DNA from: a virus
Lineage: Duplodnaviria > Caudoviricetes
Length of the DNA: 30,359 nucleotides
Virus record (IMG/VR): IMGVR_UViG_3300025030_000335
Coordinates: 1-30,359 of that record
Direction: 5' to 3' (one strand)
Part shown: piece by piece, positions 5,642 through 30,342 of the stretch
How the letters are laid out: each line of letters opens with the position of its first letter
Position numbering within the stretch: position 1 is the stretch's first letter
The notes under the pieces: generated by a model
The model's database searches: none
Told to the model about the DNA's origin: nothing
What the model saw: only the letters and a program-made list of their open reading frames with translations
Position numbers and translations under genes: made by a program

Positions 5642-6052
5642 ATGGCAGGAAAATCAAACTATCTCGAAGGACAATACCTCACCCACGAACTCCGCACCGG
5701 CTCATTCACTAAACCGGCAGGGATTTTTGTCGCCCTGCTGACAGCCGCTCCATCGGACGCAGGCGGCGGCACTGAATGCACTGGTGGCGACTATGCCCGT
5801 GTGCAGAATGGACCCTCTGATGCAACATGGAGCGCACCCAGTGGAACGCCGCGCAGCTCGTCCAATGTTGGCAGCGTCACCTTCCCGACCCCTTCCGCAA
5901 ACTGGGGCGTTGCTACTCATTTCGGACTGTATGATGCGGCCACAGGAGGCAACCTGTTGAGATGGGCGGCGCTGACGACAGCCAAAACCATCAATAATGG
6001 CGACCCTGCACCGTATTTCCCTGCTGGTACGCTGGTTGTTACTGAGGATTAA
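5642..6052 (+). CDS. Small virion/fibre-associated structural protein
   Basis: AAGGAG SD. Widespread phage motif 'SNYLE...VAL.TAAP.D...YAR...VTFP...WG..THFGL.DAATGGNLL'. Confidence 0.75.
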   Translation: MAGKSNYLEGQYLTHELRTGSFTKPAGIFVALLTAAPSDAGGGTECTGGDYARVQNGPSDATWSAPSGTPRSSSNVGSVTFPTPSANWGVATHFGLYDAATGGNLLRWAALTTAKTINNGDPAPYFPAGTLVVTED

Positions 6053-16910: not shown

Positions 16911-17618
16911 ATGGCCGGGGTAATAGGTGCGGGACAAACACTGCAAAATTCAGCCTTTTCGGGGCTTTTGTCTGCCAGTCAGCTGGAACAGCAACGCGAG
17001 ATTGCCAACGGGAATCTGGAGGCGCAGGAAAAACAGGCATCCAAGGCCCGCACCGGGACGGCACTGGGTATTGCGGCATCGGCGGCAAAGCCGATTGCAG
17101 GGGCAATTGTGGGTGGCATGGCGCCGTCTGCTGCTTCGACGGCTGCGAGTACGATTGCCAGCCAGACGGCTGCGGCTTCGGCTAATACTGCGGCCGGTGT
17201 TGGTGCGAGTGGCGTCGGGACTATGGCGGCGCCTACGTCTATGGCGGCTAATGGTGCAGCTACGGGTTCAATGGCGGCAACGACCGGCGCAGCAACCACG
17301 GGAGCTGCGGCGACAGGTGCTGCGGGTGCTGCTGGAGCCGGCGCCACTGGAGCTGCCGGGGCGGGTGCTGCCGGTGGAGCTACGTCGCTTGCTGGTGCCG
17401 GGATGGCTACATCGGCACTGGGCACTACTGCAACGGCGTCTACCATTGGTGCGGCTTCCGGTGCAGCTGCAGGAGGGGCTGCTGCGGCAGGCGGCGGTGC
17501 TGCCGCTGGCGGGGCCATGGCCGGTGCCGGTGCTGCTTCGGTTGTGCCGGTTGTCGGCTGGGTGGCTGCTGCGGGGATGGCGATTTATTCACTCGGTTCG
17601 ATGTTTGATTGGTGGTAG
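16911..17618 (+). CDS. Gly/Ala-rich ejection (DNA transfer) protein with hydrophobic C-terminus
   Basis: AGGAGG SD. Low-complexity G/A/T region ending 'VVPVVGWVAAAGMAIYSLGSMFDWW'. Confidence 0.75.
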   Translation: MAGVIGAGQTLQNSAFSGLLSASQLEQQREIANGNLEAQEKQASKARTGTALGIAASAAKPIAGAIVGGMAPSAASTAASTIASQTAAASANTAAGVGASGVGTMAAPTSMAANGAATGSMAATTGAATTGAAATGAAGAAGAGATGAAGAGAAGGATSLAGAGMATSALGTTATASTIGAASGAAAGGAAAAGGGAAAGGAMAGAGAASVVPVVGWVAAAGMAIYSLGSMFDWW

Positions 17619-17628
17619 GGGGATAATC

Positions 17629-19254
17629 ATGGGCATGCGAGATGGTAATTGGGTGAAGGATGGGCTGGACAGCTATCTGGCGGTGACCGGTGAGCGACGT
17701 GCGGAACGGAAGGCGGATGCTGATCTGGAGCAGCAGCAGCATACCCGTGATCTGCAGGACAAGCAGATGGGTATGGCGGTGAAGTCTGCCGATCTATCCA
17801 ACCAGGTGCAGGAACTGGCCATTGGCGAGGGTAAGCGCAAGGTGGATGACCGCACGCGGTTTCAGTCTGAACTGCGGGATCGTATCACCATGATGACGGC
17901 TGCAGACCCTTCCATCCCTAATACGCTGGATGCAGCGCAGATGGCGGCGTCACGACAGGAGGCGAATGATTTGGCCACCACGGCAACCTTGTTGAATGAG
18001 ATGCCGGCGGGCGCTGCGGAGTTAAAGCTGGAAACTTTGCCGAAAGCCGCCCAGACGGTGCTGATGGAAGGGCCGGGCAAGGCGGCGCTGCGGCGCAAGG
18101 GTGCTGTTCACCGGGATCCATCGGGTGCGGAATATACGATTACGGGGCAGCTCGGACCGGTGCGGGTGGTCAAGGAGGAAGGCAAGCCGACGCTGGTGAT
18201 ACCGACCATGCTGGCGGCCCGGGGTGACGGGACCATGATCGAGGTGCCTTATACCGAAAACAAGAGCAATGATCCAAATGATCCGGTGAAGTACGTTACG
18301 CCGGAGATGCTGATGAACCGTGCCGGGCTGCAATTTGCTTCACTGGATCAGGCGGAGAAGAACGGGATTTCGCCGGCCGTGGCAAAGGCTGAAAACATCT
18401 ATCGCATGGTGTTGACGCTCCCCTATGAGGAACAGGTTGCCTGGATGAAGGCGGAGATAAGCAGGGAGGTAGGGCGTCGGGATAAGTATGTTTCTAATGC
18501 GGAGTTGGCTGCGGCGGCAAAGCCGTTTGAGGAGAAGCTGGGGGCACTGAAAGGGACTCCCGAGGAAAAGCGCACAGCTGCTGCGGCGCTCACGGTGGGT
18601 GCGCCGCCCGAGGTAGTGGATCATCTGTTGAAAACGTCCAAAGTTTTTCACGATATGTTTCCGGATGTGAAGAGTACCAAAACCAAGATTGAAGAGGGTG
18701 CAGGCGCCGGGCAGGTTCGTGAGGTGCTGGTGGATGACAAGGGCGCCCGGGTGTTTGAAGGTAAGCCGTATGCCAAGCATGCGCCGAAGAGTGGCGGAGG
18801 CGACTCCACTAAGCTGGACACTCAGACACAGAAGGATATGTACCAGAATATCAAACAGCGCCAGGCGGATTATGACAAACGCCGTGCGGAATTCAATGAG
18901 GCAATTTCTACGGAAGCCGATGAAGATAAGCCTGGTAACAAGCGGCTGGGGCAGATACTGGAACAGGATCGTCTGGCTATTCGTGAAAGCATGAGGATGT
19001 ATAACAAAAATTACGGTCAGGCGTTTGCCTTACAAGATGGTGGGGGGATGCGCCAGACGCCGGCTCCTGCTGGTGGGGTAATGCGTCAGGCACCGGCAGC
19101 AGCACCGGCGGCGGCACGAACAGCCCCGGCGCAGGTTGCCCAGCGTGGCACGGGCGCTGTTATGCCTCCTGCGGGGTACAAGCCCACGGGTAAGACTATT
19201 CAGGGTAAGCCGGCGTATGTTTCGGCTGATGGTAAGAAGGTTTGGACGCCGTAA
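17629..19254 (+). CDS. Putative ejection / internal virion protein (541 aa)
   Basis: GGGGGA SD before ATG 17629. The longer ORF-track start only overlaps the previous gene. Helical and charged. Confidence 0.7.
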   Translation: MGMRDGNWVKDGLDSYLAVTGERRAERKADADLEQQQHTRDLQDKQMGMAVKSADLSNQVQELAIGEGKRKVDDRTRFQSELRDRITMMTAADPSIPNTLDAAQMAASRQEANDLATTATLLNEMPAGAAELKLETLPKAAQTVLMEGPGKAALRRKGAVHRDPSGAEYTITGQLGPVRVVKEEGKPTLVIPTMLAARGDGTMIEVPYTENKSNDPNDPVKYVTPEMLMNRAGLQFASLDQAEKNGISPAVAKAENIYRMVLTLPYEEQVAWMKAEISREVGRRDKYVSNAELAAAAKPFEEKLGALKGTPEEKRTAAAALTVGAPPEVVDHLLKTSKVFHDMFPDVKSTKTKIEEGAGAGQVREVLVDDKGARVFEGKPYAKHAPKSGGGDSTKLDTQTQKDMYQNIKQRQADYDKRRAEFNEAISTEADEDKPGNKRLGQILEQDRLAIRESMRMYNKNYGQAFALQDGGGMRQTPAPAGGVMRQAPAAAPAAARTAPAQVAQRGTGAVMPPAGYKPTGKTIQGKPAYVSADGKKVWTP

Positions 19255-19782: not shown

Positions 19783-22700
19783 ATGCCTATATTCGATTCC
19801 AGCAAGATAGCTTTTGATAATGACCAGCAACCTGGCGGCGGATCTTTCCACGATGCCGCCGCTGTTGCGTTTGATGGTGCTGATACGCGGCTGTTTTCCA
19901 AGCCGGTCCCGGCGGCGGGTGGGATGAAGCAGGTGCTGGGTATTGCCTCCGAGTCGGACAAGGCGGCCCGGTCCGAAGCTGACTATCTATTCAAGCCGGA
20001 TACGCTGCGGAAAACCTTTGTGCCTGTTCCGGCGCTGGCTGTTTCTCAGGTGGTGCAGGGTGTGGGGGGCAAGGTCCGTCAGGTGGGTGATGTGGTTGGG
20101 TCTGAAGGTATGGCGACCTGGGGTGATGAGTTTGCCGAAATGGGCGCCGGGGTTGAAAAGACCATTCAGGAAGCTGAACCTTTGGAACAAGGATCATGGG
20201 CTAACTCCATACGTGGTGGTGCTACCAGCATGTATCAGCAGTTGCCATCAATGGTGGCGGGCGGTCCTTTGGTCAAGGCGGGTATGAAGGCTGCCGGCCT
20301 GGCGACGTCTCTCCTCCCCATGGGTGCTGTAACCGGTGGGCAATCCTATCAAAAGCTGCGGGAACGCGGTTTTGATGTGGGTGCAGCTTCTGCCGGCAGT
20401 GCGGTGGATGAGCTGATCGAGGTGGGTACCGAGCTGCTGCCGATGAATACGGCGATGAGTTTTGCGACCAGTAAGGCCAAGTTTGGTTTGAAGCAGTTGG
20501 CGGCAACGGCGATCAAATATAATGCCGGTGAGTATTTTGGCGAGGCGCTGGCGGCCATGGGCCAGGGTGTTAACGATAAGTATTTGTCTGATCCGAAACT
20601 GACGCCGGAACAGCGGCAACAGAAGGTGGATGATTATTTTAGCGTGGTCAATCCACAAACCGGCAATACGGCGGCCTGGGATGATTTCACGGAGGCCATG
20701 CGGGCAACGACGGCGCAGAACGTGATGATGATGGGGCTGGGTGGCGCTGCCAATCGGGTTTCCCGCTCGTCTCAATCATCGGGTATGGCGCCGGAGCCTC
20801 CTGCTTCTGTTGCAGGTGCTCCCCAGGATGGTCAGGCCGTGCCGGTGCTGCATGAGTCCTTTGATGATATCGAAGATATGCCCGCTCCATCCGGTCCGTT
20901 GCAAAGGGCGGCTGGACAGGCGCCGGTGGTTGCGGCTACCCCTGTTGTGCCTGCTGCCTCCCCGGCACCGGCTGTTGATGCTCCTCCTGTTGTGGCTGCT
21001 GTTGGTGATGTTTCCGGCCGGGTAGCGACCAAGGAGGATGTTGACGAGCTACCCCAGGCCCGTGAATGGGCGGCACGGCAGATGGATGGCGGCAATAAGA
21101 GTCTCTGGCTGCAGGATGGCGAGTCGCAACGGGATTATTCGTGGCGGATTCTGGATCCCTACCGTGAGATGAATAAGCCGCGAAGTTTTGAGGATTCGGC
21201 GGTTGCTGTTGCTGAACCTTCTGAGCTGGATCGGGCTGTTCAGCACAATCAGGAGTTATGGCAATCGGGCCAGCGTGGCCTGATGCAGAATACCGGCACA
21301 AGCCCTGCCCAGTTTGAGAGCAGCTTGTTGCGACAGTACCGTGTTGCGATGGAGAAACAGAATGGCGCTAACGATCAAGTGCCCGCACTGCGAGGGGCGG
21401 CCGAAATGGATGGGCAGGGAATGGCAGTGCCCGAAGTGCAAGGCCCGGCTATCGGAGCAGGAAGTGATAATACTCAACCCGAAGGAGGAGGATTAACTAA
21501 TGGTCTGTCTGCACTAACTGATCAAGCCGGCAGTGCGCCTAACCCCAAGGAAGGTCAGGCCGTTGTTTCTAAGGAAGGTTTTAACGGTGACGTGGCTATA
21601 CCCAAAACAGGCAGCAATAGCCTTGAGGGAAAGGCCGCTGCGAATTTTAGAGACAACCTCGTCGAGAACAAGGGGCTGGTGGTTGCGGGTGGTGTCGGCA
21701 AACTTGGGGAGTCCTCTGACGCTGTTAAGAGTGAGCCCCTTTTTGCGAAAAGCTCCAGCCAAAGTGTTAACAGAGACGCCCAATTGGTTGGCGACATCCT
21801 TGGTCGAGACACCTTCAACAAGCAAGGATTTCGCAGTCTCGATGCTAAAACTCAATTGGGTGTGGTATCCGCCATGAGCAGACTTGTTCATGACCCTCAA
21901 ATTCTCGACTCTGTTATCAAGCTTGTCCCCGTTAATATGGTGGACGTCCTCGCTTCTCGTCAGCTTACGCCCAAGATGCTTTTCCATGACCCATCGATGC
22001 TCAAAGATGCTCTTTCCGGCAACAGTAACTCGCCTGTATCCATAGATAGTGAGACAGCCGATTCTCTGGTGAGAGGCACGGCAGCTATTGCTGCAAAACA
22101 CTTTCCCGGACTTGGAGACTTTCAATTGGGCGGGGGTCCGGTTGAGGATGGTTCCACATTCAGTGCAATAACAGATCATAACTTAACCCCTGAAGATATA
22201 ATTGCCCCTAATATACATGCAAAAGCTGGTGTAAATCAACCTAAAGAAGGGGTGTTAGATAAGGATATCACCAATAAGGACGCTCCCAAGGTTATCGCCA
22301 TTACCAGTCCCAAGCCCCCGGCCACCAGTCCCCGCCGTCTGGATTCTTCCACGGATAGCCTGATTGTGGCGGTGGCCAAATTGGGTGGGATCAGCCGTGA
22401 TCAGATTGATAAGCAGATGGGGAACGGCAAGGAGCTGGCCCGCACGCTGAATACTTTGGCCGGGAAAGAGGCTAAGACGTTTCTGCATGTGATCAGCACC
22501 AAGGGAATGCCCTTGGACCGGATGCGCGAGGCGCTGGTGGAACAGGGATACCTGAAGGAAGGTTCCAGCGTCAATGATCTGCTGGATCGTCTGGATGCTG
22601 CACAGCGTGGCACGTCCAGTTATTCCACGGCCAACAGTGGGGCGGCTGCCGACAAGGCTTATGATGCGGAGCTGGAACGTCTGCAGGATATGATGGAGGA

Positions 22701-25700
22701 TATGACCGAGGCGGAGCTGGCCGAGTTCACCCGCAATCAGTGGCTGGAAGAGCAGGCCGGGCTGCTGGCGGAAGCGTCGGATCTGCTGGATGAATACCTG
22801 GATGGGCTGAATCAGGAGGATATGACGGCTGCCGATTGGCAGGCGGTGGAAAACGACCTTAAGGAGGCATTGGATGCAACCGAGTTCAGAACCGAAGGCG
22901 ACAGTACAGCGGATCAAGGAAAAGTGTCAGAAGATGCCACCGGCGCAGAGGAAGGTGTTTCTGCAGTCGGTGAAGGCGATGGTGACGGCGAAGGTAAGGC
23001 AGAGGTTGGAGGCGGCAAAGGCCGGGACCAGGGACCGGGGACCGGTAAGGACGGCAAACAGTTAAGTGAAGGAACTGGCACCAAGACGACGACAGACACT
23101 CTTGACGTTGCCGGTGCGAATGACACAGCTAGCCGCACCACCAGCCCTTCTCTTGATGATACTGAACCGCTTTCGAAGAACGCCGGGCCCAGCGTCTTAT
23201 CTGGTGAAAACCAGACCCCCTTAATCCCTGGGGCTAAAACGGCTCTTGATGATTCTAGTATTGCCCATGACGGTAAAAATGTCAAACAGGAAACACCGGC
23301 AGCGAGGTTTGAGGCAGGGGGCACAATCGTTCCTGATCTGATAGGCGAGAAGATAGGCGGGGCACGTAAAGATCTTGCCACCAGTACCGGCACAGTTGCC
23401 AAGAAGAAACCGAAGTCGGATCTTCCCGCCTGGAAGCGGCGATATGTGGTGATGGAGGATGTAAAAACAGGGCAGAGCCGCATTGTCGATACCACCACGA
23501 ACAGAAACCTTATCAGAAGATTGTTTACCACGGCAGAAGAGGCGGAAGAAGCATTGCCGCTGGCCGTGGTTGCACTTAAGCACAAGGTGCGCATGGACAC
23601 CGGGGGCACGTACAAGATAACCCGCGAGGTGACAGAGCGGAAGCGTGTGACCATTAAGGACGGGTTCCCTACCGAGGAAGCCGCCATGAAATACATGGTT
23701 CAACATGCAGAAGAGATCATAGAGCAGAGTACATACTTTGGCGCCGAGATCCTTGCGCGGCCGGAAAAGGTTGTCAGGAGTGGTGCAGAGCGCCGGAGCG
23801 GCAATGCCACCGGTCAAGCATTCATGGACGCTTTCGGTTTCAGGTCCGCAGAGTTCGGGAACTGGAACAATGCAGAAGAACGGCAAGAGATTTTGAACCA
23901 TGCCTATGATGGCCTGGTGGACCTTGCTGAAGTCCTCAACATCCCTCCCAAGGCGCTCAGTCTCAACGGTGAGCTTGCCATTGCCTTTGGTGCGCGTGGC
24001 CAGGGTCTGTCAGGAGCAGCCGCACATTACGAACCTGCGTATGCTGTCATCAATCTCACTAAAATGAGCGGCGCCGGGAATCTTGCCCATGAATGGTTTC
24101 ATGCGGTAGATAATTATCTTTCCCGTCAGGATGGTTCCGCTAAGTCGGAAAAGGTGAAAAACAAGCGTGGTGACATGGTGTACCCTGCGACCGGCAAAGA
24201 TATGGCCAGCCTGGGGTTTTCTACTAGAGGTTCAGGTGTGCGCGAAGAGGTGAGAGACGCGTTCAAGAGCCTGCTGGAGTCCATGTTTTACAAGGCCGAG
24301 CAATACGTCGAGGACACGGAAAAGGCCGAGAAGTTTGTTGGGAGCGCACTGCGTAATGTCGAAAGCAGGTTGGCAGATATTCGCCGGCACATTGCCCGTG
24401 ACCGTGAATATGGGGCAAAGAAAAAGGCCGCAACCGCAGAACAGCTTGCACGTTTTGATGAACTGGCAGCCAAGTTGGCCAGTACGCAAAGCGAACCGAT
24501 AGAGTGGAAAATGGGCATTGGTGTGAAGGAAGGGGCCAAGGCAAAAGACCGGGGAGCATTCGGGCAGTCCCGGTGGACAAACGACACAATCGAGAGCATC
24601 AGCACGATAATGAAAGAGGTCACAGGAAGGAGCGGTTTCAGTAAGGAGGGTAAAGATACCCTCAATTACCTGGCCAGCGTTGTGCGCGATCTTCAACGGC
24701 GGCATTCCATGCTGGAGGGGGCCAGAAATCAGGATGTAAAGACCAAGAAGATACCCACCAGCTACCGGCAAGAGGCGTACAAGATTGATCAGGGGCGGAC
24801 CAGTGATTACTGGACCAAAGAAGAGGAAATGGCAGCACGTGCATTTTCTGCCTACATCGAGGACAAGATAGGCGCAGAGGGCAATACCAGTGATTTTCTG
24901 TCATTCGGTTCGGACAACAAGTATTACCGGCTCTACAACATCATGCCATTCCCTGAAGGGAAAGAGCGTGAAGCGATCAACAAACAGTTTGACAACTTCT
25001 TTTCCACCCTGAAAACCAAGGAGACGGACAAGGGTGTGGCCATGTTTTCCCTCGCCCAGTCGGACAAACCCTCAATCCTGCCGGATGTGGAATTCGATGC
25101 GGTCCTTGATCGGATCACCGGTGGGCGGGTTAAAGACACGCACGCTTTCGTGGTGGCTCGCACGGGTTTTGATCTTCCGGCGCCGATACTGGCAGTACTT
25201 AAAAAGCAGGGCACCCGCCCCAATCAGGTAGATGGCGTATTCCATAATGGCAAGGTGTATCTCATCCGCGAGAACATTGCAAGCAAGGAACGTCTGGAGG
25301 AGCTGCTGTTTCATGAATGGCACGGCCATGCCGGCTTGTATGCGATGTTTGATAATGATGGCAAGCGGCTTTGGGATGGCATGCTGAAATTATACCATAC
25401 CATTACCCCTGCGGTGCTGAACAAGGTGGGCGCCAAGTACGGCATTAACCTGATGCGCTACAGCCATGGCATGGCGAAGGCCGGGTATTCGACGGATGAA
25501 ATCCGGGTGGTGCTGATGGAGGAGATGCTGGCGCACCTGACCAATGAATACAGCCGGGGGGATATTGCCACCAAGATCAGGGAGATGATTGGAAAGATCC
25601 GGGCCTGGCTGCGTGACAATGGTTATGCTTCTCTGGCTTCATGGGGTGAGACGGATATCGCCTTTCTGTTGAAACGTGCCCGGATCTATGCGGAGTCGGG

Positions 25701-28700
25701 TGTTTGGGCCAAGAATAGTGACACAACGGTTATCCCCAGTGGTGCCGAGATCCTGAAGGTGCTGCGTGAAAAGGGGATCAGTGATGAGATGCTGCAGAAG
25801 CTGCTGAACGCTTCTCCGAAGTTTATGACGGCATGGCATGGTTCGCCACACGACCACAACAAATTCAGTAACGATCATATCGGGACAGGTGAAGGGGCGC
25901 AGGTGTATGGGTATGGGTTGTATTTTGCGGGAAATCGGGAAGTGGCGGAATTTTATCGTTCCAAGTTAACGGGTGGAGACAAGTTTTCATCAATCACTAT
26001 AAATGGAGAACCTGCCGGATATTACAGTAAAGACCTTGTGGCAACAAAAGCTATTAATGCAATCATTGACAATAATGGTGATGTTGATGCCGCATTGAAA
26101 AACCTGCTGGAGAGAGTAAAGGAATCGCCATTTAAATCTCTGCGCAATAACGCCGAAGCGGCAGTAAAGTTTATACGGCAGAACAAAATTGAAGTTGGCA
26201 AAAAAGGTAAGCTGTATCAGGTGGAACTCGCGCCGTCTGAGGATGAGTATCTGTTGTGGGATAAGCCTTTGTCAGAACAAAGTGAGAAGGTTCGTGAGGT
26301 GTTGGAAACGGTTATGCCATTGTCTGATGCCGGGATTCGTGAATGGTATATCAATTACGAGATCAACAATCCTAACGCATGGGAGTTACATCGGGAATAT
26401 TATGAAGACGCTCCTGCGTTTGATGCTCCGAACACAGTTAAACGATCATGGCTGGAAGAAAGCAAAGCAGATTGGATAAGTGAAGCGGTTTCTGATTATA
26501 AACAGATGCATGGTGATGACCGCAAATCTTCCGGGCGGGAGTTTTATTTTCGTCAGAGTTCATTAAAGGGTTCTGACAAAGCCGCTTCCGAATACCTTCA
26601 CTCCCTCGGTATCCGTGGCATCAAGTATCTTGACGGCAACAGCCGCAACAGATCAATCAAGGATATCAAAAAAGCCTTCCTTGCTGAATTGGAAGAGGAT
26701 GCCGGGTTTGATGATGTAATGGAGCTGGTGGGTACCGGCAAGTTCAGTGCAGAGCAAGAGGCGGTACTGAAGGCACTTGAATCTGATGATTGGCTTGGTT
26801 TTGATTATCCCGCCCAGGCTATCAGTGCCGCACTTGGTAATAACCTGAGTGATTTCGACCCAAGTTCAAAGCTGGTTGATGCGGTGGCCCAGCTTGCCAA
26901 GGATCAGCAGTTTAACTATGTGATTTTCAATGACGAGGATGTGAGTATTCAGGCGAAGTTTTCCATCCGCGAGGATCAGCCTTCCGTTACAGAAACAGAG
27001 GCTTTCAAGAAGTGGTTTGGAAAGAGTAAGGTGGTGGACGATCAGGGTAAGCCGCTGGTGGTTTATCATGGGACGAGAGCGGATATCAAAGTTTTCAATA
27101 TGGGGGACGAGGGAGGAACCTTTTTTACTACATCACCTGAAAATGCCAGTGAATATGCCGGGGGATGGGGAGAAATCGGCCAAACTGAAGGTGGCAATGT
27201 CATGCCAGTGTACCTCTCAATCAAGAACCCTTATGTGGTTACAGTTAAGCAATGGAATATGGCTGAAGGTCTAGATCCCGAAGATGCAAAGGCTGAAGGT
27301 TATGACGGGTATGTTATTGAGGAGCAAGAGGGTGGTGATACATGGATTGCATTTGAGCCAAGCCAGATCAAGTCCGCTACCGGCAACAACGGCGACTTCG
27401 ACGGCAACAATCCTGACATCCGCTTTTCCATCCGTGAGGATACACAAAAGGTTTCCACGGTTTCGACGGTGGATAAGATCAAGCAGTTCCTCAATCCCCT
27501 GGATTATTCCCGCTTCAAGGATTCGGCTGTTGATCATCTGCCCAATGATGCCACCATGTGGCTGGCGGATAATATCGGCAATCCTTATTGGGTGAAGGAA
27601 AACAACCCGGCAGCGGCGCCCTTTTATGAAGAGGCCAAGGACCGGGAAGTTACCAAGCTGGATAACAATATCCGCATGTTTGGCGGGCTGGTGGATAATG
27701 ACGGCAAGCGCACGGCCTGGGACAAGATCAAGGATCTGGGGCAGTGGAGCGAGCATACGACCGCCTGGGGCAAACTGCGCAAGGAGAAGTATGACAAGCT
27801 GACCGACAAGCAGAAGGCTGCCTATACTATGCTCCGCTTTGAGGGTGACGCGTACAACAAGACCTATGAAACCCTGTCCAATGCCCTGCGCAATCCGCGT
27901 ATCAAGAAGGCCGGTGTGGATGCGGCGGTGTTTGACTTCTACCGTGAGGCGCTGGCGGCTGAGGAAGCTTCGTTTGAGGAAAAGCTGCAGATTGCTGCGG
28001 AGAATATGGCCGAGGCGGGCATTGATCCGGAGAAGATCAAGGGGCATATTGCCGAGTATCGTGCCCGCTATGCCGACCTAAAAGGCTGGGTGCATCGGGA
28101 CCATGGCGAGGGTGATCATGTGGTACAGGTCTACCATACCATTGACCGCCTTGATTTTGTTATGGATGAGGTGCAGCACAAGGGTGCGGCTTCCGACCGG
28201 ATCCGGTTGGCGTATTCTCCGGGGGTGGAGATTTCCCGGGCGATCGAGAAGATTACCAGCGAGTTGGGCGGGACATTCAAGCAGTTGAGGGATGGCGGCA
28301 TGGTGATCCTGCTGCAAAAGGGGCAAGGCGAGTTTGCCCGGGAACGTTTCGACCGGCTGAAGCTGACCAACAAAGATGGCAAGCACAAGTATCAGGTGCT
28401 GGTGTACACCCGTTTCGTGGCCAATGCTGCCCAGGCCCGCAAACTGGCGGCCGAGGTGAAGGCGAATCCATCTGCGGCTATGCCGCGTAACTATTACGAG
28501 GGGCACAGCTATGCTACCTCCTGGAATTTCTCCAATAAGCTGCAGGAGGCGGATTTTCAGGAGCTGCGCACCAGTGACATGAAGATGGAGCTGGTGTTGA
28601 GTCAGGCGGTTAACAAGGCTGCCTCCAAGGAAGGGCTGGATGAGTCGGCGGTTAAGGCAATCCAAGAGGCACTGGTGCAGAATGTGGCGGAGGCGCTGTT

Positions 28701-30342
28701 GGGGCGTGGCGCCGGTCTGTACCAGATTCGCCGGGCCAACCATCTGATTGAGGGATACGACCAAACCGACGCGGTCAAGAAATATGAGGATTACGTTAAT
28801 AGCACGGCCGGGATGTTCAGTAAGGCCCGCTATGCCCTGCGGCAGTTCCACAATATGAAGAACGTGGCGCCCAAGCTGCGTAACTGGGCTACGCGCTATT
28901 TTGCCGACAGCCTGCGCAATATGGGCGCCGGTGATCGTTTGTCCGGGAATGTCCGTGCGGTGGTGTCGCTCTGGTATCTGGGATTCAATGCCAGCTGGAT
29001 GCTGGTCAACTCTACCCAGCCGCTGGTATTGGGTCAGGCGGAGTTGTCCCGCTACACGGAATCACCGTTCCTGAAGATTGCCAAGGCGGAGAAGGATCTG
29101 TTGACCGGCAACCTGACCGAAGAGGAAAAGGGAATTCTGCAGGAGCATGCCACCATCACCCAGGACCGGGACAGCATGATGGCAGAAATGACCGGTGCGC
29201 TGGACGGTGTGGGGGGCAAGGCCAGCAAGGCGCTGCATGGTGCTGTTCAGGTTGCCATGGCGCTGGGGCAGAAGGTGGAGGTGCTGAACCGGCATACGAT
29301 GATTATTGCGGCGTATCGGGTGATGCGCGAGAAAAATATGGACCGGGCGGAGGCATACCGGAAAGCGCTGGAGATCAACAGCGCCGTTAATATCGATATG
29401 GGGCGTTACAACCTGCCCCGCTGGGCACGCGGGCCGGTGGGACGCACCTTTTATTCGCTGCAATCCTATATCCAGCACATGCTGAATTACCTGTACCATC
29501 GCAGCAGCAGCGGCAACCGTGCCGATCAGAAAGCGGTGTTGCGCCTGCTGTTCGCCATGTTCCTGTTGGGCGGTGCGCCGGTGGGTGCGCCCGGTAGTGA
29601 TGAGCTGGATAAACTGATTCAGCGGCTGTTTGGATATTCTCCCAAGCTGGCCCTGAAAGGGTGGACCCGCAAGTTTGCCCAGGAGTACGCCAGCGCCGGA
29701 GAAATGCTGGAAGGTTTTGTGTGGCACGGTATCCCGGGTGCGTTCAAACCTTTTGGGGTGGGTGTGTCTCTGACCGGAGCGACCCAGCTGCGGATCCCGA
29801 TCATCTCCAACATGATTGCCGGGGATGATATGACCAGGAGCCTGACCGGCCCAGTGGGCGGTTTGGTGCAGAAGGGGGTGATGGCCGGCAAGGCGCTGCA
29901 GCGTGGTGATGCAACCAGGGCGGTGGAGTATCTGGCACCGACGGTGGTTGGCAATATGATGAGCGCTGTGCGGCAATCAACCGATGGGGTTAAGACCGGT
30001 CATGGCAAGCGGGTTGATTACAAGGGTAAACCACTGAAGATGGAGCCGCAAGAGGCGGTGTTGCGGGCAGTGGGGCTGCAGCCGGTGCGCACGGCGGATA
30101 TTTCGGAGACACGCGGTAAGCAGTTTGATCTGTCCCGCGAATGGCGTGAACGGCGCCAGGATGCGCTGGATAACTATCGCAACAGCCGCAAGCTGAAGTA
30201 TGTGGCCGAGTTCAACCGCGAGCTGAAGGCAAGCCAGGCAGCCGGCATTATCAATCCGATCACGGCGGATTCGATGAAGCAGGTGTGGGGCAAGCCGGAC
30301 AAGAAGAAGGCGGCATGGGAAAAACGCTATGGTGTGGAGTAA
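19783..30342 (+). CDS. Giant polyvalent virion/ejection protein (3519 aa)
   Basis: LPD5-like '[12 protein letters not shown]' (~23341). LPD1-like 'FGFR.AEFGNW...AFGARG...HYEP...LAHEWFHA' (~23820-25050). Zincin 'HEWHGH..EEMLA' (25312). ART-like 'WHGSPH...GTGEGAQ.YG.GLYFA' (~25830). ART-PolyVal-like '[20 protein letters not shown]...PVYL...QIKSA..NNG.FD' (~26990-27430). Helical PLxRFG-protein-type C-terminus. Confidence 0.9.
21362..21496 (+). CDS. Nested +1-frame zinc-ribbon mini-protein (44 aa)
   Basis: [30 protein letters not shown]...; GGAG SD 7 nt before the ATG; two CPxC knuckles. Confidence 0.65.
   Translation: MALTIKCPHCEGRPKWMGREWQCPKCKARLSEQEVIILNPKEED
21514..22179 (-). CDS. HNH homing-type endonuclease nested antisense in the giant ORF
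   Basis: Zn finger 'CTECG...FCSNSC', HNH core '[14 protein letters not shown]...[16 protein letters not shown]...H...H', two C-terminal HTH-like repeats. AGGGG SD 7 nt before the ATG. Confidence 0.92.
22209..22238 (-). promoter_or_regulatory. Candidate sigma70 promoter for the nested HNH gene
   Basis: Minus strand TTGATT-18nt-TATATT in an AT-rich patch just upstream of the SD; coordinates approximate. Confidence 0.45.
22303..22333 (+). repeat. Degenerate heptamer repeat
   Basis: ACCAGTC CCAAGCC CCCGGCC ACCAGTC CCC. Confidence 0.55.
22874..23065 (+). CDS. Nested +1-frame basic helical mini-protein (63 aa)
   Basis: Perfect AAGGAGG (22861-22867) 6 nt before the ATG; amphipathic '[29 protein letters not shown]'. 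Confidence 0.55.
   Translation: MQPSSEPKATVQRIKEKCQKMPPAQRKVFLQSVKAMVTAKVRQRLEAAKAGTRDRGPVRTANS
23022..23046 (-). repeat. Heptamer repeat, inverted copy of the 4470 array
   Basis: Reverse complement ACCGGTC CCCGGTC CCTGGTC CCGG equals the 4470 array minus one unit. Confidence 0.75.
23068..23253 (-). ncRNA. Candidate antisense structured RNA with two tandem multi-stem domains
   Basis: Domain 1 (23164-23245): 10-bp closing stem with three hairpins. Domain 2 (23068-23150): ~12-bp closing stem with inner hairpins. Each unit opens with ATCATCAAGAG. Confidence 0.6.
23257..23285 (-). promoter_or_regulatory. Antisense sigma70 promoter inside the giant ORF
   Basis: Minus strand TTGACA (23285-23280), 17 nt, AATACT (23262-23257). 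Confidence 0.65.
26959..27441 (+). repeat. 18-bp direct repeats flanking the ART-PolyVal-like domain
   Basis: TTTTCCATCCGCGAGGAT (26959-26976) and TTTTCCATCCGTGAGGAT (27424-27441); both encode FSIRED and lie 465 bp apart. Confidence 0.75.

Follow-up and report, generated by a model that had tools for sequence, protein, structure and literature searches.

Introduction

The ShiLan domain is an HNH endonuclease hidden out of frame in the DNA methylases of mycobacteriophages (Arsenault et al. 2025, PMC11855218). In the part of that paper available to us, it lies on the methylase gene's own strand, in frame 3, at one precise site and without a ribosome-binding site. Antisense LAGLIDADG or VSR-like endonucleases have been described within inteins (Gosselin et al., bioRxiv 10.1101/2025.01.02.630785), and intronless homing is known from free-standing phage homing endonucleases, such as those encoded by the T4 mob and seg genes (Edgell et al. 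2010, PMC2988022). The large polyvalent proteins of phages form a further point of reference (Iyer et al. 2017, PMC5512222); the main text of that paper contains none of the words 'antisense', 'overlap', 'homing' or 'intein', and a single unrelated 'HNH'. Our literature search, with most subscription papers and supplements outside its coverage, returned no paper on antisense HNH genes in polyvalent-protein genes.

Here, a viral contig of 30,359 bases carrying phage virion genes was analysed over its whole length (the window), with the focus on an HNH endonuclease gene lying antisense within a giant open reading frame. As far as the cited reports describe the known systems, this HNH resembles ShiLan in that it lies wholly within an open host ORF without intron or intein, is patchily distributed and is presumably retained in the host product, nuclease activity being predicted in both. 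It differs from ShiLan in being antisense and codon-aligned, in its polyvalent hosts, many sites, promoter-like signals and Zn-HNH-HTH architecture, and in the measurable amino-acid selection in the host frame. It works like ShiLan, as an alternative-frame HNH in a stop-free host frame, but, being antisense, in another class of host and at many sites, it is not a member of that group, which sits on the same strand in DNA methylases. With the antisense-endonuclease inteins it shares an endonuclease ORF running antisense within an open host frame; there the passenger is spliced out, whereas the window has no detected splicing domain and its nuclease is an HNH. With the T4 endonucleases it shares an HNH joined to a presumed DNA-binding C-terminal part, and the absence of a splicing element, and it is from them that the model of cleavage and co-conversion is borrowed.

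On balance, we favor the reading that the gene is a selfish, intronless homing-type HNH cassette, which lies antisense and codon-aligned in variable module slots of polyvalent genes, the giant protein probably being translated through it without splicing.

Results and discussion

An HNH gene antisense to a polyvalent-protein gene

Pfam detected LPD1, ART-PolyVal and a weak LPD5 in the giant ORF, and a PLxRFG domain was also identified. The presence of several polyvalent-type domains in one giant phage protein places it among the large polyvalent proteins as understood by Iyer et al. (2017), with which it shares LPD1, LPD5, ART-PolyVal and modular domain exchange as far as that paper describes them. 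The adjoining 775-aa ORF (16927-19254, plus strand) matched no Pfam or PHROG family.

Table 1 Features of the window (positions in the 30,359-base contig)
Feature	Position	Strand	Basis or remarks
Virion-gene cluster (major head protein, internal virion protein, SU10 adaptor, tail fibre, Dam)			Pfam and PHROG
Giant host gene, 3519-aa phage large polyvalent (PLxRFG-type) protein	19783-30342	+	LPD5, LPD1, ART-PolyVal; no cysteine
Nested gene A, 44-aa Zn-ribbon ORF, +1 frame of giant gene, with SD	21362-21496	+	Also in L150, L152 and L153; directly left of cassette
Nested Zn-ribbon gene B, remnant (MVCLH*)	21500-21517	+	Intact in L150 and L152; truncated in window at cassette edge
Inferred cassette limits	21510-22270		Left ~21509/21510, end of DNA match to HNH-free L152; right ~22255-22285, from protein match to P0002 only
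Nested HNH endonuclease gene, 221 aa (CxxC..FC..C Zn finger, HNH_3 core, two HTH)	21514-22179	-	Pfam, alignment, model
HNH upstream region with weak SD (AGGGG) and sigma70-like promoter (22239-22210)	22180-22239	-	Not significant alone
Host-frame passenger segment common to family (host aa 651-799)	21733-22179	+	Selected I/V-P-V-D/N motif; predicted helical ~aa 658-775

The sequence-only reading had described an intact minus-strand ORF with a Zn finger, an HNH core and two HTH motifs, in exact codon register with the giant frame. Translation from the ATG and Pfam searches bore this out, and the gene spans host aa 578-799. The absence of codons that would place a stop in the host frame was likewise verified (TTA or CTA in 0 of 23 Leu, TCA in 0 of 19 Ser). 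HNH_3 (PF13392) matched residues 61-102 above its cutoff (E 4.6e-12), while zf-FCS-like (5-37) and HTH matches (~112-154 and 171-204) fell below theirs; PHROG HNH matches were also obtained. Core residues H80, H81, N83, N89, N93 and H102 are invariant among 18 sequences. The predicted structure reached a pLDDT of 84.7, and Foldseek placed I-HmuI (1u3e) at rank 2, a weak match (E 0.031, prob 0.97, rmsd 10.8 over a multidomain chain). A search of PDB sequences with the HNH profile returned HTH-like proteins and designed repeats and no HNH.

Both an SD and a candidate promoter are present upstream as first noted, but the SD is a weak AGGGG and TTGATT-18-TATATT occurs once against 1.2 ± 1.0 sites by chance. 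Similarly, the local dip in GC is real (0.495 against 0.589 and 0.576 in the flanks) but modest, as 10 of 66 windows of the giant gene are equally low. Across the family, 13 of 24 upstream regions have a -10-like element no more than 45 bases from the start (four starts being uncertain), compared with 0.9 expected from random windows and 3.7 (maximum 10) in shuffles. Several of these elements lie 6-7 bases from the ATG, as in leaderless mRNA. The HNH of L003 (~5955-6000, plus strand) has a good -10 element (TACAAT) and an AGGAGAG SD but an in-frame ACG at the expected ATG position, which could be either a non-canonical start or a sign of early decay. A second antisense promoter-like sequence, a strong match of the sigma70 type (TTGACA-17-AATACT, 10/12), is located at 23285-23257 on the minus strand, which also carries the HNH, ~1 kb upstream of that gene; hairpins but no ORF follow it, the fold is not significant (z -1.44) and none of the fetched loci contains a homologue.

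Absence of recognizable splicing elements

The earlier statement that no intron or intein is evident stood up to searches of Rfam, RNA folding, Hint/intein families and terminal motifs, all of which came out empty. At E ≤ 1, Rfam gave no intron family in 20500-23500, only a chance snoRNA match, and sense-strand folding of the insert was unremarkable (z -0.89). The host-frame insert matched no Hint or intein family in Pfam, PHROGs or NCBIfam, contains neither an intein terminal motif nor a Cys, and is predicted to be all-helical. It also lacks the hallmarks of group I or II introns, having no ribozyme family, junctions that differ and a length almost wholly taken up by the HNH ORF and its promoter. 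Removal of the segment by an unrecognized intron or intein is made conceivable by the published antisense endonucleases inside inteins, as far as that preprint describes them (bioRxiv 10.1101/2025.01.02.630785); we regard such removal as very improbable, given these results and insert ends that vary between sites and copies. Moreover, selection at the amino-acid level in the host frame (see below) is unexpected of an intron and favors read-through over RNA splicing.

Recurrence of the nested arrangement

The window HNH was used as the sole query against loci from two IMG/VR scans (41 loci, plus the best 80 of 311), and close relatives were defined as distinct sequences of at least 100 bits whose match extends into the HTH region. 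In this set, an antisense, codon-aligned ORF of at least 600 codons surrounds 16 of the 19 close viral relatives; among the other three, L004 lies inside a 193-codon ORF, and L048 and L059 are intergenic. The family thereby differs from the T4 endonucleases, which lie between genes in the account available (PMC2988022); the window HNH itself is inside an open host ORF. None of the 93 more distant loci of the same set shows the nesting, the longest ORF there being 355 codons. In GTDB genomes, 3 of 3 close matches were nested versus 0 of 22 distant ones (25 analysed loci; L147 and L148 were left out as truncated or weak).

Could an open frame opposite an HNH, or opposite a GC-rich giant gene, be an accident? 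Long antisense ORFs are indeed common in the giant gene, which has 36 antisense stops in 3520 codons, and an open antisense frame covers the matched stretch in 9 of 54 lower-scoring HNHs. The ORF in question, however, is a conserved HNH with 21 invariant columns, and its nesting separates close from distant loci as above. Chance openness is refuted by the recurrence of nesting, the conservation of the HNH frame, codon selection and family-wide core compatibility, and we give it practically no weight.

The HNH tree is weakly resolved (clade root support 44/86) and compatible with one origin of nesting or with several, with the intergenic L048 and L059 inside a supported subclade (96/91) together with five nested members. 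In L004 (1897-2475, minus strand), the backwards HNH makes up most of the separate ORF, which ends in a near-copy of the C-terminal tail of the preceding gene's product; in this locus neither Cys avoidance nor the Pro codon is strictly kept.

With a profile built from the host-frame peptide (A2), 1.84 billion cluster representatives yielded 119 matches at E ≤ 1e-30 and 502 when the cutoff was relaxed to E ≤ 1e-10, compared with only 5 close relatives of the HNH among called proteins. Of the best 150 host-frame matches, 124 are at least 1000 aa long. Polyvalent-type Pfam domains were found in 18 of 25 hosts scanned, a WGR domain in 1 and nothing in 6. All six HNH core residues are encodable opposite 153 of the 155 segments in the best 150 hosts, and five of six in the remaining 2; this is compatibility judged from the protein alone, in matches chosen by similarity, which favors intact copies. 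P0132, P0133, P0134, P0135 and P0138 each hold two copies of the backwards-HNH segment. On the sequence evidence, the nested-HNH family is real, recurrent and hidden from annotation.

Some further HNHs overlap long ORFs in other frames. The distant HNHs L010, L033, L036 and L105 do so with antisense ORFs of 735 and 836 codons and same-strand ORFs of 768, 569 and 753 codons, and are candidate ShiLan-like insertions. GenBank phage matches H6, H19-H25, H28-H29 and H38-H40 lie under DNA methylase features in mycobacteriophages and a cyanophage and, by position alone, are probably of the ShiLan type. The host-frame peptide had one weak match among GenBank phages, in a methyltransferase.

Insertion sites and alleles without the HNH

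As the sequence-only reading had proposed, related giant genes (ten homologous giants and L121) were compared, and the comparison defined the limits of the cassette given in Table 1. The closest relative, P0002, is 79% and 82% identical on the two sides and has an InPase domain in the slot and no HNH. The idea that the host simply carries ~250 extra linker residues was therefore not upheld: the cassette replaces the InPase module of P0002, 238 aa against 179 aa, a net gain of ~59 aa. At the same site, P0003 (DNA L150) has a clean insertion of ~590 bp that encodes a related HNH of 170 aa with a GGAGG SD. The HNH is absent from the other nine giants and from L121, leaving 2 carriers among 12 host homologues.

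The insertion site lies between two +1-frame Zn-ribbon genes, which are adjacent in HNH-free L152 and both intact around the insert in L150. In the window, only gene A is complete: gene B breaks off after its first 10 bases, at ~21510, and the left junctions of the two cassettes differ. Neither terminal inverted repeats nor a target-site duplication was found at the cassette ends in the window or L150. Small same-strand, +1-frame genes with SDs, hidden in 'linkers' of giant genes, were observed more widely: at 21362-21496, 21500-21517 and 22874-23065 (plus strand) in the window and, with it, in L150, L152, L153 and L121, there are two Zn-ribbon ORFs and one basic ORF of 46-63 aa, conserved across relatives. 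Gene A is 71% identical between L150 and L152 in its +1 frame versus 50% in the host frame. Judging from such arrangements, polyvalent genes may be general platforms for nested genes.

Alleles without the endonuclease exist, and the carriers are disjunct on the host tree, as expected of homing endonucleases. In the tree of the downstream flank, a clade of the two same-site carriers was rejected (p-AU 9.7e-6), and each has an HNH-free relative at 89-90% identity. Their HNHs are 48% identical, below their host flanks (65%); together with the differing left junctions, this indicates no recent homing between these two carriers. In addition, InPase and other modules are equally patchy in this slot, so the patchiness of the HNH could reflect general module shuffling.

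One contig of the sequencing run X2 (depth 587) agrees with HNH-free L152 in its two loose ends, in the mismatch counts and in the spacing of 972 bases, and the window phage is present at depth 9.7. A carrier and a non-carrier therefore co-occur in this run, which may be the source of either, though the window and L152 share only about 69% DNA identity. Among the contigs of four DNA runs, which show presence and not absence, there was no near-identical allele skipping the insert.

Family-wide, the segments are diverse, with 8 of 11,929 pairs at least 70% identical, and the flanks fall into 77 downstream and 94 upstream clusters. The insertion sites that recur are variable loops in a domain with a GTGEG motif, the ART-PolyVal cassette and the slot ahead of InPase. 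Mosaic pairs include 95% identical inserts between flanks 34% and 88% identical and two pairs at 75-77% without flank similarity. One recurrent site shows 80-89% identity over the 26-27 aa next to the insert, with divergence in the flanks beyond.

These data bear on the view that the HNH is a domesticated phage tool, cutting rival phage or host DNA or serving recombination, which is kept for the benefit of the phage and shuffled as a polyvalent module and does not home by itself. Homing endonucleases usually decay, and the core residues here are almost never lost (153/155), although the selection of matches by similarity favors intact copies. Slot content is also interchangeable with InPase and other modules, and polyvalent proteins are regarded as conflict systems (PMC5512222, in the portion available). 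Such a tool would nevertheless not be expected to interrupt or replace host domains such as ART-PolyVal, as the HNHs do, or to occupy so many unrelated sites, and a short conserved stretch beside the insert with divergence beyond it is what a conserved target would produce. Domestication is in our judgment unlikely, and a homing-type cassette is preferred, homing by the window HNH being presumed from its sequence and distribution.

Selection in both reading frames

In a codon alignment of 17 nested genes, mean identity was 39% in the HNH frame and 27% in the host frame; the HNH frame was the more conserved in 135 of 136 pairs, with 21 invariant columns versus 1. The opposite pattern, a conserved sense peptide with drifting HNH residues, which would have spoken against the original interpretation, was thus not found.

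Codon use was compared between 16 nested sequences (15 loci and the window) and 19 GC-matched free HNHs, the control set being small and the sequences related; the nested L003, L044, L045, L054 and L123 were dropped by core-motif de-duplication. Codons that would create Cys in the host frame are completely avoided in nested HNHs (0/305), with ACA at 0/144 versus 22% and GCA at 0/161 versus 16% in free HNHs. The host-Trp codon CCA (3/49 versus 26%) and the host-Tyr codon ATA (6% versus 29%) are also reduced; the A-ending codons GGA, AGA and CAA show no such depletion. The window HNH alone has ACA 0/17 and GCA 0/13 (chance ~0.0015). Although four host residues are allowed opposite HNH residue G84, Pro stands there in 150 of 155 segments of the best 150 hosts. 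Of the 16 nested loci, 15 use GGG at this HNH position and one uses CGG, compared with GGG in 3 of 53 other HNHs, and a host-frame Asp occurs in 136 of 155 segments. The free-standing L048 and L059 each contain 3 codons of the stop-making kind, and neither has the Pro codon.

With the codon use of the 19 GC-matched free HNHs, zero stop-making codons in the window HNH would have a chance of ~0.0014. This zero is, however, forced once the giant frame is open, and the recurrence in relatives is the real test. A local DNA or RNA motif could account for the Pro, but not for gene-wide Cys avoidance. The patterns indicate that the host frame is under selection beyond stop avoidance, suggesting that the insert is translated as part of the host protein and stays in it. 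Of the best 150 host-frame matches, 90 host proteins contain no Cys; we infer that Cys-free hosts reflect virion packaging or ejection. A 21-residue peptide suggested earlier for virion mass spectrometry needs amendment, as it is preceded by Pro and has an internal Lys; the tryptic peptides are two of 13 residues each.

The description of the passenger as a neutral linker does not fit these data, since specific host residues are selected and a helical bundle is predicted. AlphaFold on the host-frame alignment A2 gave this bundle with mean pLDDT 73.9 and pTM 0.65 (pLDDT 76-89 over ~residues 11-120), values possibly inflated by covariation inherited from the HNH frame. The model had no match in BFVD, no usable Atlas match and, in the PDB, matches to generic helical bundles alone (best Z 6.1). 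The model and the nearly fixed Pro and Asp would suit a functional folded domain of the polyvalent protein, with each frame kept for its own function. That interpretation seems to us quite improbable: the host frame is almost always the less conserved, close host relatives do without the segment, and no copy among the 155 segments keeps the host segment after loss of the HNH core.

Implications of nested HNH cassettes

For the preferred reading of a read-through, homing-type cassette, the following course of events is proposed. The HNH would be made from its own antisense promoter, with SD-led or leaderless initiation, and would nick or cut an HNH-free relative during co-infection. Recombination between homologous flanks would then copy the cassette into that relative, in many cases in place of an optional slot module, here presumably InPase together with nested gene B. 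The cassette may persist because synonymous sites of the HNH are tuned to keep stops and Cys out of the backwards peptide, with Trp and Tyr rare in it and a Pro fixed. With an open and tuned backwards peptide, the downstream polyvalent domains would still be made, and the passenger would be tolerated, probably as a compact helical segment.

The splicing-free invasion read through by the host, as originally suggested, thus gains from the recurrence, HNH-frame conservation, Cys avoidance and lack of an intron or intein, while its homing step is presumed. The strategy is not unprecedented, as ShiLan provides a same-strand version in the published text accessible to us (PMC11855218). In the nested family, selection on two strands is unusually clear, as judged from codon patterns. 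A bolder and more tentative proposal, which we rate below the reading preferred here, is that hundreds of HNHs have specialised in lying antisense in polyvalent genes, that both strands are under protein-level selection over ~450 bases, and that the backwards reading might be a folded, Cys-free helical module travelling in the virion, a domain born de novo by overprinting that replaces a splicing device.

In summary, nesting of this kind would add to introns and inteins a third means by which a homing-type nuclease can occupy coding DNA. Nested HNHs appear to be common yet invisible, being missed by gene callers, and they amount to an extensive natural collection of antisense genes that overlap completely and in which selection can be measured in either frame, so that the emergence of new domains through overprinting becomes open to direct testing. 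They may be one driver of module exchange in polyvalent proteins, some of whose 'unknown domains' would be nucleases read backwards.
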